A stretch of DNA of 64,000 nucleotides from a plasmid. Position 1 is the first letter of the stretch. Each line of letters begins with the position of its first letter. Below are positions 36,901-42,900 of the stretch, in pieces. Made by a program: the position numbers. The stretch is from assembly GCF_988243305.1 (NCBI RefSeq), contig NZ_OZ547137.1; one strand, given 5' to 3'.

Positions 36901-39900
36901 CAACGAGAACTGATGGGAGCCGATTATCTGCTCCACGTCAGCACCCCGATCGGCACCCTGCGCTTTAGCCGCCGCAACCGCGGCAAGGTGCCGGAGAAAG
37001 ACGAGTCGCTACCGATCGGCTTCTCGCCTGCCGATGTGCATCTTTTTCATGCTGAGACCCAGCATAATTTACAGATGGAGACAGATCATGTTTAAACCCC
37101 TCACCGCCCTGACGGTTGGGCTCAGCCTTGCCCTGAGCGGCGCGGCGCTGGCGAAAGAGAAAATAGACTTTATGTTCCCGGCGCCGGTGGACGGCAAGCT
37201 GACCATGGAGATGACCCGCGTCATTAAGCAATTCAACGACTCGCAGCAGGATGTCGAAGTGCGCGGAATCTTCACCGGCAACTACGACACCACCAAGATC
37301 AAAGCCGAATCGGCGCAGAAGGCCGGCCAGCCACCGGCGCTGGTGATCATGTCCGCCAACTTCACCACCGATCTGGCGCTGAAGGATGAGATCCTGCCGA
37401 TGGATGAGCTGTTTAAATATGGCGATCAAAAGGCCGGCAATTTTCTGCAAACGGAATTCTGGCCCGCGATGCATAAGAACGCCCAGGTGATGGGCACCAC
37501 CTATGCGATCCCGTTCCATAACTCGACGCCGCTCCTCTACTACAACAAGACGATGTTCGATCGGGCCGGGATCCAACAGCCGCCGCAGACCTGGGCCGAG
37601 TTGCTGGCCGATGCCAAAAAGCTGACCGACGAGAGCACAGGCCAGTGGGGGATCATGCTGCCGTCGACCAACGACGACTTCGGCGGCTGGATCTTCTCGG
37701 CGCTGGTGCGCGCCAACGGCGGAAAATACTTTAACGAAGACTATCCGGGCGAGGTCTATTACAACTCGCCGACCACAATCGGCGCCCTGCGCTTCTGGCA
37801 GGATCTGATCTACAAAGACAAGGTGATGCCGTCCGGGGTGCTGAACTCGAAACAGATCAGCGCCGCGTTCTTCTCCGGCAAGCTCGGGATGGCGATGCTC
37901 AGCACCGGCGCGCTGGGCTTTATGCGTGAGAACAGCAAAGACTTTGAGCTTGGGGTAGCTATGCTGCCAGCCAAAGAGCAGCGCGCAGTGCCGATCGGCG
38001 GCGCCAGCCTCGTAAGTTTTAAAGGCATCAGCGAGGCGCAGAAGAAAGCAGCGTATCGGTTCCTGACCTATCTGGTGAGCCCCGAGGTGAACGGCGCATG
38101 GAGCCGCTTCACCGGCTACTTCTCGCCGCGCAAGGCGTCATACGATACGCCAGAGATGAAGGCCTATCTGCAGCAGGATCCGCGGGCGGCGATTGCGCTT
38201 GAGCAACTGAAGTACGCCCATCCATGGTACTCCACCTGGGAGACCGTCGCCGTGCGTAAGGCGATGGAGAACCAGCTGGCGGCGGTGGTCAACGATGCCA
38301 AAGTAAGGCCGGAAGCCGCGGTACAGGCGGCGCAGAAGGAAGCTGACGCGCTAATGAAACCCTATGTGGATAAGACCGCGTTGTCGGAAGTGAAGTGACG
38401 CGTTACCCGTCATCGTCACCCTCATCCTGGCCCTCTCCCTGAGGGCTGTCTCTTGATCAGATCTCCTGATCAAGAGACTTCATCACCAGGTAACCCTCAA
38501 CCATATCCTGAAGTCTGAACCAGCCATCCCACATAACTACCCAACCGGGGCGGCCTGTGCGTTTGCTGTCATACCATCGCCCCAGTTTCGCCAGTTTCAG
38601 ACAGGCCCATTTCAGTGTCGGCGTCTGTGACGGAAGCGGTTTTCCTTCCAGCTTAACCCACAGCAATTTCCACTCTGTCGGCGCCAGTATTTTCTCACAG
38701 CTGTCATTTTGTGTTTCTTCACTGATACCTCCCTGCCGCAGGCCCAGCACCCGTACCGCTATAAAGGGGTTTGGGGAGCAATGGAACAGTAACGCCGTTA
38801 AGAGGTTAATTAAAATAGCCAATTATCTATTAATCAATAAATTATACATCTTCATTGAACGCCCTCAGCTCACCCTTACTGACTGATTCCGGCACTATAA
38901 ATGAATAGCGCCCTTGCATATTAATATGCCCGCACTGTAATGGTGACAGTTTCTCAACGTCTGAATCCAGGACCGGGTACCCCTCACGCCTGAGCTGCTG
39001 AATTGCTGCATCCATGTAAATAGTGTTCCACAGAACAATAATATTGAGCGCCAGACCTGAACCGCCCCGGAAATCCTGGAGACTAAACTCCCTGAGAAAG
39101 AGGTAAACAGGATGACTAAAAATACTCGTTTTTCCCCCGAAGTCCGTCAACGGGCAGTTCGTATGGTTCTGGAAAGTCAGGGCGAATATGACTCACAATG
39201 GGCGGCAATTTGTTCCATTGCTCCAAAGACTGGCTGTACGCCGGAGACTCTGCGTGTCTGGGTTCGCCAGTATGAGCGGGATACCGGGGGCGGAGATGGA
39301 GGGCTCACCAGTGCTGAACGTCAGCGTCTGAAAGAGCTGGAACGTGAAAATCGTGAACTGCGCCGCAGCAACAATATCCTTCGCCAGGCTTCCGCTTATT
39401 TTGCGAAGGCGGAGTTCGACCGCCTCTGGAAAAAGTGATGGCACTGCTGGATAAGCTGCGTGAGCAGTACGGGGTCAGACCGGTATGCAGTGAACTGCAT
39501 ATTGCCCCGTCAACGTATTACCACTGTCAGCAACAGAGACATCATCCTGATAAACGCAGTGCACATGCACAGCGCGATGACTGGCTGAAGAGAGAGATAC
39601 AGCGCGTATACGATGAAAATCATCAGGTGTACGGTGTGCGTAAAGTCTGGCGTCAGTTGTTACGGGAAGGAATCAGGGTGGCCAGATGTACAGTGGCGCG
39701 CCTCATGGCGGTTATGGGACTTGCCGGTGTTCTCCGGGGTAAAAAGGTCCGCACTACCGTCAGCCGGAAAACCGTTGCCGCAGGTGACCGCGTAAACCGT
39801 CAGTGCGTGGCAGAACGTCCTGACCAGCTGTGGGTGGCTGATTTTACTTACGTCAGCACATGGCAGGTCTTCGTCTATAGTGGCGTTCATCATTGATGTA

Positions 39901-42900
39901 TTTGCCGGATATATCGTGGGATGGTGGGTATCATCGTCCATGGAAACGACATTCGTGCTGGATGCACTGGAGCAGGCGTTGTGGGCCCGTCGTCCGTCCG
40001 GCACCATCCATCACAGCGATAAAGGCTCTCAGTATGTGTCACTGGCCTATACGGAGCGACTAAAAGAAGCAAAACTGCTGGCATCAACAGGGAGTACAGG
40101 CGACTCGTATGACAACGCGATGGCGGAGAGCATCAATGGTCTTTACAAAGCGGAGGTAATACACCGTAAGAGCTGGAAAAAACGTGCAGAAGTGGAACTG
40201 GCCACACTCACGTGGGTGGACTGGTATAACAATCGACGATTGCTGGGAAGGCTGAGGCATACTCCTCCGGCAGAAGCAGAAAAAGCGTATTATGCTTCCA
40301 TCGGAAATGATGAGCTGGCAGCCTGAGTTCACAGATAAAACACTCTCCAGGAAAACCGGGGCGGTTCAGTGAGATCATCGTCCCCTCCCGGTCAGTTCAC
40401 GGATCAACACTGTGAGCAGCTCTGGTGAAGGATTTTCCAGCGTCATGTTACCGTGACGGAACTCAACCTTACAGGAGCTGGCACTGACTGTGGTCTGAGT
40501 AGATAAAGACGGAGTAAGAGCAGCCACCGGTTCTTTCGGTTCATCCGGCGTTATCTCCACAGGTAATAATTCAACGCCAGTGTCAGAAGAGGTTGTTACC
40601 GGAAGACGCCGCGATATACGCCCTTCATTCTGCCAGAGCCTGAGCCATTTGAACAGCAGGTTATCATTGATATCGTGTTCCCGGGCAATACGGGCAACAG
40701 AGGCTCCTGGTTGTAAAGCCAGTTTAACCATTTGAAGTTTAAACTTATTTGAAAATGATCTGCGGGGTTCTGCGGATAATGCTTTCTGTTCCATAACAGG
40801 TGTCTAACTATTGGGGCGCACTTCAGTTGAAAAGGTGGGCACCTAAGTTACCAATACTGGCTTAATGGCTACATACGGCGGTCAGTTTACGCTTACTTCA
40901 TGACCTGATGAAAAGACCTGTCCGGGGCTTTGACATCCACCAGGGCCTGAAGGACGAGGCTTTACGGTGCACCCGATAAAGAACAACAGACACCCCGGAA
41001 AGTGTCTGTTATGTTCTGCGCTTCTTGCTTTATTTCAGTATCACGACAGGAATATTTTCCGCGTGAGATATGAAGTAATTAACCATAAGCATCTGTTATT
41101 TATCAGAAAAATACTGCATTTATAATCAGCAGCGTGACTGTACCTGACGCCCATAATATGGTTGAGGTTATGCTCCAGACCCGGATCTGTTCCTGTACTT
41201 CGGTAACCCCCAGAGAACGGTTTACAACCCAGAAGTAGGCATCGTTAAAATAGGAGAACATGAAAGAACCAATCGTACAGCCAAGACCGGCAATGATTGG
41301 ATCAACACCCAGTGTACCGATCATCGGCGCGGTGATGCTGGCCGCGGTAATCATCGCCACGGCACCGGACCCCTGGATAAGGCGGATAAGCGTGGACAGG
41401 AGTAAAGGCAACAGTACACCGGGAACGCCAATTTTAACGATATAACCTGCAATCATATTGGCGGCACCGGAATCCCTCAGAACCATCCCCAGAGCACCAC
41501 CTCCTCCAATCAGCAGTAAAATGATACCAGCCGATCGGATAGCATTGTCCATACTGTGGGTCACTTCTTCTCGCGCATAATGACTTCCGAGGCCAATAAC
41601 CGCAATCAGAAGTCCACATCCCACAGCCACGACCGGGTGCCCGATGGTGATGAACATTCTTGATACCGTCCCCTGCCAGTGACCAGCCCATGTATCTGCA
41701 ATGCCGCTTTCCCGGAAGAATGTCGCCAGCAGGATCAAAATAATCGGCACAAACAAAGGCGCGAAGGAAATCAGTGTGCCAGGAAGTTGCTCATCTTCCT
41801 GTGGGTTTAGCACGGGAACAGCCTGCCATTCACGGGTAAAGCCTTCGCCATCTTCCGTTGGCACAATAAAAATGCGTTTTCCCAGCCATGTGGTATAGAT
41901 AAATCCGCACAGCGTGACCGGAATGGCAACCAGCATGCTCCAGAGCATGAATGTCCCTATCGGCATATCAAACTGAGAGGCTACACCGAAAGGCCCCACC
42001 GCCGGAGGGATCATACTGTGGCTGATAACCAAGCCGGCTGCCAGTGTTGCTCCCAGGCCGACAATTGACTTTCCACTGGTACGTGAAAGCGACTTAACAA
42101 GCGGTGTCAGAACAACAAATGCTGAGTCGCAGAATACGGCCATTGAAACAATAAGACCAATCAGGACAAGTGCGAGTTCTTCACGCTCTTTACCCAGCAC
42201 CCGGATAAAGGTCTGAGCCATTTTTCTGGACGCGCCGCTGAGCTGAAGCAAAGCCCCCATCATTACACCAAACCCGATAACGATGCCGATATTACCCAGT
42301 GTTCCGCCAAATCCTTTCGTAATAGACTGAATCATCAGGTCACTCTTCATCCCTCCTAATGAACCCGTAATGATGGCGGCGATAATCAGAGCGGGAAAGG
42401 TGGATATCCGGGTTTTCAGTATCATAAACAACAGGGCTGCAATGGCAACAAGCAGACCACCAATAACATGCGAACTTTCCAGTTCACTGCTACCGTGGCT
42501 TCCTATATAGAAAATAACCAGACCTATAATCAGTATTACAATGCCTTTTAACCTAGGGCTTAATGAATATCTGCCCGTTACTTTTATATTTTCAGACATA
42601 ATAATTTTATCCTTCTTAAATACAGTCAGTTCTGTATTTAATGATGCAGTCATAGGCACTCCCGCTTAATAAGCGGGAGTTATGTTACCGATTACTGTTT
42701 GCTGAAGCAGGGTGCATATAGCGCTGCCAGCCGGACAGCTTCAATCATACTGACAGGGTCTGCGATCCCTTTTCCTGCAATGTCATTGGCAGTACCGTGG
42801 TCGACGGACGTACGCAGGATGGGCATACCATTGGTGATAGATATCGTGCGATGAAAATCCACCATCTTGGTCGCGATATGTCCCTGATCATGGTAGGGGG

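Follow-up and report, generated by a model that had tools for sequence, protein, structure and literature searches.

The closest described counterparts of the locus reported here are the IS629 sites of Escherichia coli O157:H7, where matching 3-4-bp target duplications were found at 21 of the 47 sites in four genomes, and where other insertion sequence (IS) elements often surround IS629 (Rump et al., PMC3271280). IS elements of the copy-out/paste-in type yield deletions, inversions, and cointegrates from junctions between their two inverted repeats (IR-IR junctions; PMC9333248), and some of them target their own ends (PMC9333248; PMC2909936). Here we describe a mosaic in a 64,000-nucleotide stretch of an E. 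coli F-type (IncF) plasmid (contig NZ_OZ547137.1; the whole stretch is referred to as the window), in which four mobile elements adjoin one another within 2.45 kb (38446-40896): a remnant of ISEc13, a fragment of a Tn3-family transposon, an isoform of IS629, and a remnant of an IS66-family element. The mosaic is very probably a non-functional scar, or "IS island," that was formed by nested simple insertions followed by at least one deletion or recombination event associated with IS629. It is inert, because the orfB of IS629 is frameshifted and the other three elements have no transposase.

Results

A mosaic of four elements between two cargo operons

The mosaic is located where two convergent cargo operons meet at their 3' ends and disrupts no gene, and across it the guanine-plus-cytosine (GC) content changes from ~0.60 in a module encoding an ABC transporter and a phosphodiesterase to ~0.46 in a module encoding a GntP permease, a PdxA-like dehydrogenase, and a sugar-acid kinase. 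RefSeq labels its parts as incomplete IS4-family and incomplete Tn3-family transposases, a frameshifted IS3-family transposase with a pseudoknot, and an IS66-like accessory TnpA, and the present account is a correct reading of an ordinary structure that is known in kind and already annotated there. For comparison we used 5426 complete E. coli genomes, the PLSDB collection of 72,556 plasmids, and 66 kb of sequence from the plasmid nearest to this one, NZ_CP196121.1. That plasmid is 143 kb long, bears RepFIB along with genes for aggregative-adherence fimbriae, and is collinear with window positions 22916 to 52737 at 99.7% identity. A preliminary description of this DNA had named the four elements and had them abut at precise termini, and reference alignments place both the identities and the abutments where that description had put them, with matches whose length and high identity are not due to chance.

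IS629 carries unmatched flanks

The IS629 isoform (copy A, 1311 bp; 39058-40368, plus strand) has the ~1.3-kb length and TG...CA inverted repeats of the IS3 family, with TGAACCGCCCCGG and CCGGGGCGGTTCA as its termini. It contains orfA (39112-39438), an ALIL frameshift pseudoknot (39393-39509; Rfam, 117.6 bits), and an orfB that is broken by an extra A at 39879 (IS position 822) into open reading frames at 39435-39896 and 39880-40326, and the NF033516 profile matches both orfA and orfB. Over its full 1311 bp it shares 95.3% identity with the IS629 annotated in pO157 Sakai, a value that is borderline for assignment to the same IS. To its left is acc (39055-39057) and to its right gtg (40369-40371), such that the 3-4-bp target duplication is lacking, and the flank sequences thus agree with the unmatched 3-bp flanks first described. 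The lack of a duplication reflects later rearrangement and is no evidence against membership in IS629.

An internal control for this feature is found in the same window, where an IS629-like element (copy C; 52738-56317, minus strand) lies inside the transposase gene of ISEc38 (ISL3) and is bordered by ctc on both sides as a 3-bp duplication. Copy C is absent from NZ_CP196121.1, which has the empty site, and on this plasmid a simple insertion of the element is thus seen to produce a 3-bp duplication. The absence of target duplications had initially been stated for all of the elements in the mosaic; it holds for IS629, whereas the ISEc13, Tn3-family, and IS66 pieces each keep only one end, and for these three it cannot be assessed.

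Three one-ended fragments surround IS629

The ISEc13 remnant (IS4 family, IS50 group; 38446-38765, minus strand) consists of an inside-end-type terminus, a hairpin, and the last ~101 transposase codons, and it is cut by the Tn3-family repeat. It starts at 38446 with CTGTCTCTTGATCAGATCT, and the first 19 bp (38446-38464) form the inside-end-type terminus, which we take to be identical to the Tn5 inside end. The remnant corresponds to positions 1-320 of an annotated 1550-bp chromosomal ISEc13 (97.2% identity over 320 bp), with homology ending after ...ataaa. The 101 encoded residues match the C-terminus of the Tn5 transposase (E=3.6e-15; residues 385-469 at E=3e-14), and the match to the NF033590 profile is partial, covering positions 315 to 405 of 405. 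The terminal hairpin, formed by the first 33 bp (38446-38478) with a 13-bp stem, has a folding energy of -34.3 kcal/mol (z -6.1). A reference copy of ISEc13 (L010) has an 8-9-bp duplication, where 9 bp would be expected for the group, and the remnant in the window has one end only. The label "IS50-like" used in the preliminary description was therefore right, and the element has a name, ISEc13.

A second ISEc13 end is present in the same orientation at 63912-64000, where it runs past the edge of the window, and in the related plasmid this second end is a 250-bp remnant adjoining an ISEc23 (IS66-family) element. Elsewhere, between the chromosomal E. coli genes lldD and trmL (L016, 1201-1235), a perfect 35-bp palindrome is composed of two ISEc13-type hairpin tips, with G/C-rich flanks that look boxC-like to us, and this palindrome may derive from ISEc13 as a miniature element or have been left behind by it as a footprint.

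The ISEc13 remnant stops where the Tn3-family terminal inverted repeat of 37 bp (GGGG...TAAG; 38766-38802, plus strand) begins, and this is followed by the 3' tail of tnpA (38842-39057, minus strand), comprising 71 codons and a stop codon at 38842, which IS629 truncates at 39057. The 292 bp from 38766 to 39057 share 94.6% identity with an end of L007, a complete 3.87-kb transposon of a Salmonella plasmid that carries tnpA and tnpR, and the window repeat aligns with both 38-bp repeats of that element save for one deleted base. We take the repeat to be close to that of gamma-delta. The tail matches positions 902-953 of 954 in the NF033527 profile as well as the end of the 994-residue TnpA of the Salmonella element, and it represents the last 71 residues of a protein that has ~1000 residues in full-size Tn3-family transposases. 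The opposite end of the transposon, where the 5-bp target duplication of the family would have its second copy, is absent. Beyond the point at which tnpA is cut, the intact relative reads ...ccagacc/taacgctcc, with the slash here and below marking the boundary.

On the other side of IS629, the IS66-family remnant (40369-40896, minus strand) retains a terminal repeat that ends at 40896 and reads GTAAGCG, an intact accessory tnpA (40375-40794; NF047595 at 87.3 bits, cut-off 74), and the first 10 nt of tnpB (40369-40378). The start of tnpB overlaps the stop of tnpA (ATGA), an arrangement that characterizes the accessory tnpA and tnpB of the IS66 family. The tnpC gene for the DDE transposase and a second terminal repeat with an 8-bp duplication are absent from the window, and the piece is a remnant rather than a complete member. 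Its nearest sampled full-length relatives, chromosomal elements in which tnpB likewise overlaps tnpA, are ~90% identical, and 67 other records match it at 95-99%. Apart from the short second ISEc13 end at 63912, neither the window nor the 66 kb from the related plasmid yielded any further piece of ISEc13, of the Tn3-family element, or of this IS66 variant.

The arrangement recurs, and IS629 pairs with different distal flanks

The preliminary description had raised the concern that repeats might have collapsed in the assembly. With four IS629-related copies or fragments in the window, a classic source of short-read mis-joins, a chimeric junction produced by repeat collapse or by mis-joining across IS629 copies would be a natural suspicion; the identical 2.8-kb arrangement is present, at 98.8-100% over its full length, in 12 of the 5426 complete E. 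coli genomes and in 11 PLSDB plasmids, records that were produced by different laboratories in different countries, and the junction of acc with the left inverted repeat (IRL) of IS629 (acc/IRL, J1) is also found in two metagenome contigs. As it recurs in 12 independent complete assemblies, the arrangement is not mis-assembled, and an artefact is exceedingly improbable.

The same Tn3-tail acc/IRL junction is paired with different DNA on the far side of IS629 in other plasmids. In CTX-M-27 plasmids such as NZ_CP087378, identity is 99.8% up to the right end of IS629, after which the sequence continues as ctc-gttccgg into a major facilitator superfamily (MFS)/cellulase module that is absent from the window, where gtg and the IS66 remnant follow instead. 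In NZ_CP076694, the same IS629/IS66/GntP junction is situated behind an IS26 truncation. Thus, as first proposed, IS629 here marks a rearrangement and not a simple insertion. These identities, boundaries, unmatched and variable flanks, and missing halves, along with their recurrence across assemblies, are read directly from the sequence examined.

One explanation of the exchanged flanks is that two complete IS629 copies underwent homologous (RecA-dependent) recombination. One copy would have been inserted in the Tn3-family tnpA and flanked by duplicated acc, and the other in the IS66 tnpB and flanked by duplicated gtg; the two could have been direct repeats in a single plasmid, from which a deletion would result, or have belonged to separate plasmids that fused and were then resolved. 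Suitable partners are abundant, with the four IS629-related copies or fragments in the window and 11 places in the related plasmid record that match the 2.8-kb query, most of them IS629-related. The proximal junctions are fixed while the distal flanks vary among plasmids in both orientation states of IS629 (see below), and single-nucleotide polymorphisms (SNPs) are mosaic among the IS629 copies in a manner consistent with exchange. Against these points stands the failure to find either parental simple insertion or the reciprocal product among the 5426 E. coli genomes or the 72,556 plasmids, and we would give this explanation an even chance of being correct.

IS629 occurs in both orientations on the same Tn3 tail

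Many other F plasmids (for example pJJ1886_5, pM24, and that of locus L012) carry the same ISEc13/Tn3 scar with IS629 in the opposite orientation, its right end (right inverted repeat, IRR) following ...gccag. This gccag/IRR junction lies exactly 3 bp short of the ...gccagacc/IRL junction of the window, and the loci examined for the inverted state were L006, L012, L013, and L020. Among the complete E. coli genomes, acc/IRL occurs in 56 and the inverted gccag/IRR in 148, and among metagenome contigs the counts are 2 for the window type and 5 for the inverted type. Both aligned copies of the window type have the extra A at position 822, as do two of the three aligned inverted copies. The distal flanks of the inverted IS629 are also varied: most have an IS26 truncation, whereas L012 has actccg-MalY and L020 has atccgg-IS21. 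A gccaga/IRR junction, which is 2 bp further in than the window state, was seen in a single record that the database contains twice, and it could reflect either true variation or an error in sequencing. With ends of IS629 falling 0, 1, and 3 bp apart on the Tn3 tail across plasmids, the term "insertion hotspot," which had been applied to the whole region, finds support only locally, at this tail, rather than for the whole region as a preferred target.

At least two end-joining events must have taken place at these 3 bp, because homologous inversion cannot change orientation at the proximal junction. Two derivations of the inverted junction were considered and set aside by reasoning rather than computation: homologous inversion between copy A and the partial copy B (described below), which cannot flip the proximal orientation and so does not derive the inverted junction from the window arrangement, and canonical figure-eight chemistry between the right end of copy B and the left end of copy A, which does not yield the inverted junction. 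The 3-bp offset is the length of the spacer in IS3-family circle junctions, and it hints at end-targeted transposition. It is conceivable, though unlikely, that the end of the tnpA tail is a natural record of end-targeted transposition or in-place flipping of IS629, in which a transposase acting in trans re-joined one defective copy, or a copy inserted beside its end, instead of two unrelated insertions having occurred; the inactivating extra A shared by sampled copies of both orientations would fit such a course. A scan of the genome collection for abutted IS629-type ends gave three matches only (L024-L026), all in metagenome-assembled genomes of unrelated taxa with 2-3-bp spacers; abutted termini of this kind are what circles or dimers of IS3-family elements would be expected to contain, and they say nothing about the locus described here.

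The same spacing bears on a second explanation of the unmatched flanks, in which an IS629 end or an IR-IR junction (dimer or circle) attacked the same plasmid and deleted the DNA in between, leaving one old and one new flank. Copy-out/paste-in elements make such deletions and inversions and can target their own ends (PMC9333248; PMC2909936), and IS629 ends in both orientations exactly 3 bp apart on one Tn3 tail suggest transposase chemistry. The frameshifted copy A would, on the other hand, need transposase in trans, and the end sequence would be the same as that of a homologous recombination product, leading us to regard transposase-mediated joining as possible rather than probable.

Copies A and B bracket a sugar-acid module

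Beyond the IS66 remnant is a module (41103-46900) encoding the GntP permease, the PdxA-like dehydrogenase, a four-carbon acid sugar kinase, a DeoR regulator, and a KpsF/GutQ isomerase, which looks like a cluster for the catabolism of sugar acids of the threonate/erythronate type that the plasmid carries as cargo. A further IS629 copy (copy B, IS positions 1-913; 48230-49142, minus strand) is inverted relative to copy A and is truncated by another IS3-family element, and copies A and B bracket the GntP/PdxA/sugar-acid kinase module with their left ends facing outward. Such a configuration would be expected if the two copies were the arms of a composite transposon whose arrival placed the module and the IS66 remnant together in the Tn3 tail, and at L012 and L013 a single IS629 without the module does occur between the same outer sequences. 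These module-less plasmids are not empty sites, however, since an IS629 is still present there, in the opposite orientation and with its junction shifted inward by 3 bp or 2 bp, and copy B is cut at position 913. We rejected the composite-transposon explanation, which is very unlikely, as the outer flanks, acc and act, are not duplicated.

The IS3-family element that truncates copy B at IS position 913 (~46950-48229) appears to be intact, abuts the KpsF/GutQ gene, and has hybrid flanks, and a match to the Rfam small RNA isrC (142 bits, 48039-48161) falls inside it. Copy C is split by a 2.26-kb group II intron (53262-55522; Rfam Intron_gpII match at 53253-53339), which encodes its reverse transcriptase/maturase on the minus strand (53343-54866). 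Just past the same Tn3 tail, plasmid p4_1_1.1 (L009) likewise has a maturase gene of a group II intron.

Discussion

A possible history of the mosaic

Three of the four junctions, namely the Tn3 repeat in ISEc13, the IS629 end in tnpA, and the IS629 end in the IS66 tnpB, are just what simple nested insertion would yield, and a rearrangement is needed only to account for the pairing of the two IS629 flanks. The proposal in the preliminary description that the locus arose through IS-mediated deletion or recombination consequently stands for that pairing and not for the other three junctions. The mosaic would have begun with insertion of ISEc13 downstream of the gene for the ABC-transporter binding protein, after which a small Tn3-family transposon may have inserted into the ISEc13 transposase gene and IS629 into the tnpA of that transposon, within its final 216 bp. 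Separately, an IS66-family element would have inserted beside the GntP operon, with an IS629 end becoming joined 10 nt into its tnpB. A rearrangement centered on IS629, through homologous recombination between IS629 copies or through transposase-mediated intramolecular deletion, could then have joined both contexts, removing most of the ISEc13, Tn3-family, and IS66 elements and leaving one IS629 with unmatched flanks. In doing so it would have joined the 60% GC transporter module to the 46% GC sugar-acid module. Afterward, the scar was presumably inherited vertically within the plasmid lineage, while IS629 would have kept swapping the DNA on its far side as portable homology. This order of events, as well as the participation of two IS629 copies and the identity of the joining enzyme, is what we infer from the junctions.

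Several results weigh against a history of nested insertions followed by rearrangement. Using synthetic queries, no tnpA running past the IS629 site behind the ISEc13 junction was found in PLSDB, where the best matches begin at the Tn3 repeat and lie in other contexts, no intact IS66 element next to the GntP flank was found in the 5426 genomes, and the reciprocal junction IRR/acc-taacgc was not found. The other reciprocal junction, ...gggagtg/IRL, was also not found, its 45 apparent matches being two separate pieces; in the one match that was opened (H251), IS629 is ~80 bp away, inside tnpA. An attempt to trace descent by SNPs inside IS629 was dropped, as the patterns are mosaic between copies and not decisive. 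Moreover, homologous recombination and transposase-mediated deletion both leave one IS with unmatched flanks and cannot be separated by sequence alone.

Although the finding matters little by itself, the locus is a textbook case of how IncF accessory regions are assembled, with modules of different origin, at 60% and 46% GC, stitched together where IS629 copies provide portable homology. Its practical value is as a lineage marker for related F plasmids, including ST131-associated and aggregative-adherence types, which can be distinguished by the presence of the four-element scar, by the orientation of IS629 on the Tn3 tail, and by the distal flank of IS629. Those who study target choice in the IS3 family may find the 3-bp offset of the two orientations of interest, but it is a small point.

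Comparison with known systems

The ISEc13 remnant shares with ISEc13 and the IS50/Tn5 group 97% nucleotide identity to the former, a Tn5 inside-end-type terminus, and a transposase stop codon within that end, and it encodes a region homologous to the C-terminal dimerization region of the Tn5 transposase. It is not IS50 itself, because its protein aligns to the Tn5 transposase as a distant homolog only, and unlike a complete ISEc13 it retains 320 of 1550 bp in the window. The Tn3-family fragment resembles small transposons of the Tn3/Tn1000 (gamma-delta) type, which contain tnpA and tnpR only, in its GGGG...TAAG repeat and TnpA C-terminus, and differs from its complete relative in having 292 bp left and a repeat of 37 bp instead of 38 bp. 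With the tnpA-tnpB-tnpC elements of the IS66 family, the fourth piece has in common the GTAAGCG terminus, an intact accessory tnpA, and the ATGA overlap, whereas tnpC and all of tnpB past 10 nt have been deleted. Copy A itself differs from the IS629 of pO157 Sakai as a 95.3% identical isoform that is defective through the extra A at position 822. In its 1.3-kb length, TGAACCGCCCCGG termini, orfA/orfB organization, and ALIL pseudoknot, it is like the IS629 "IS islands" of E. coli and Shigella plasmids and of O157:H7, and it also conforms to known IS629 elements in that matching duplications are often missing and other IS elements lie around it (PMC3271280).

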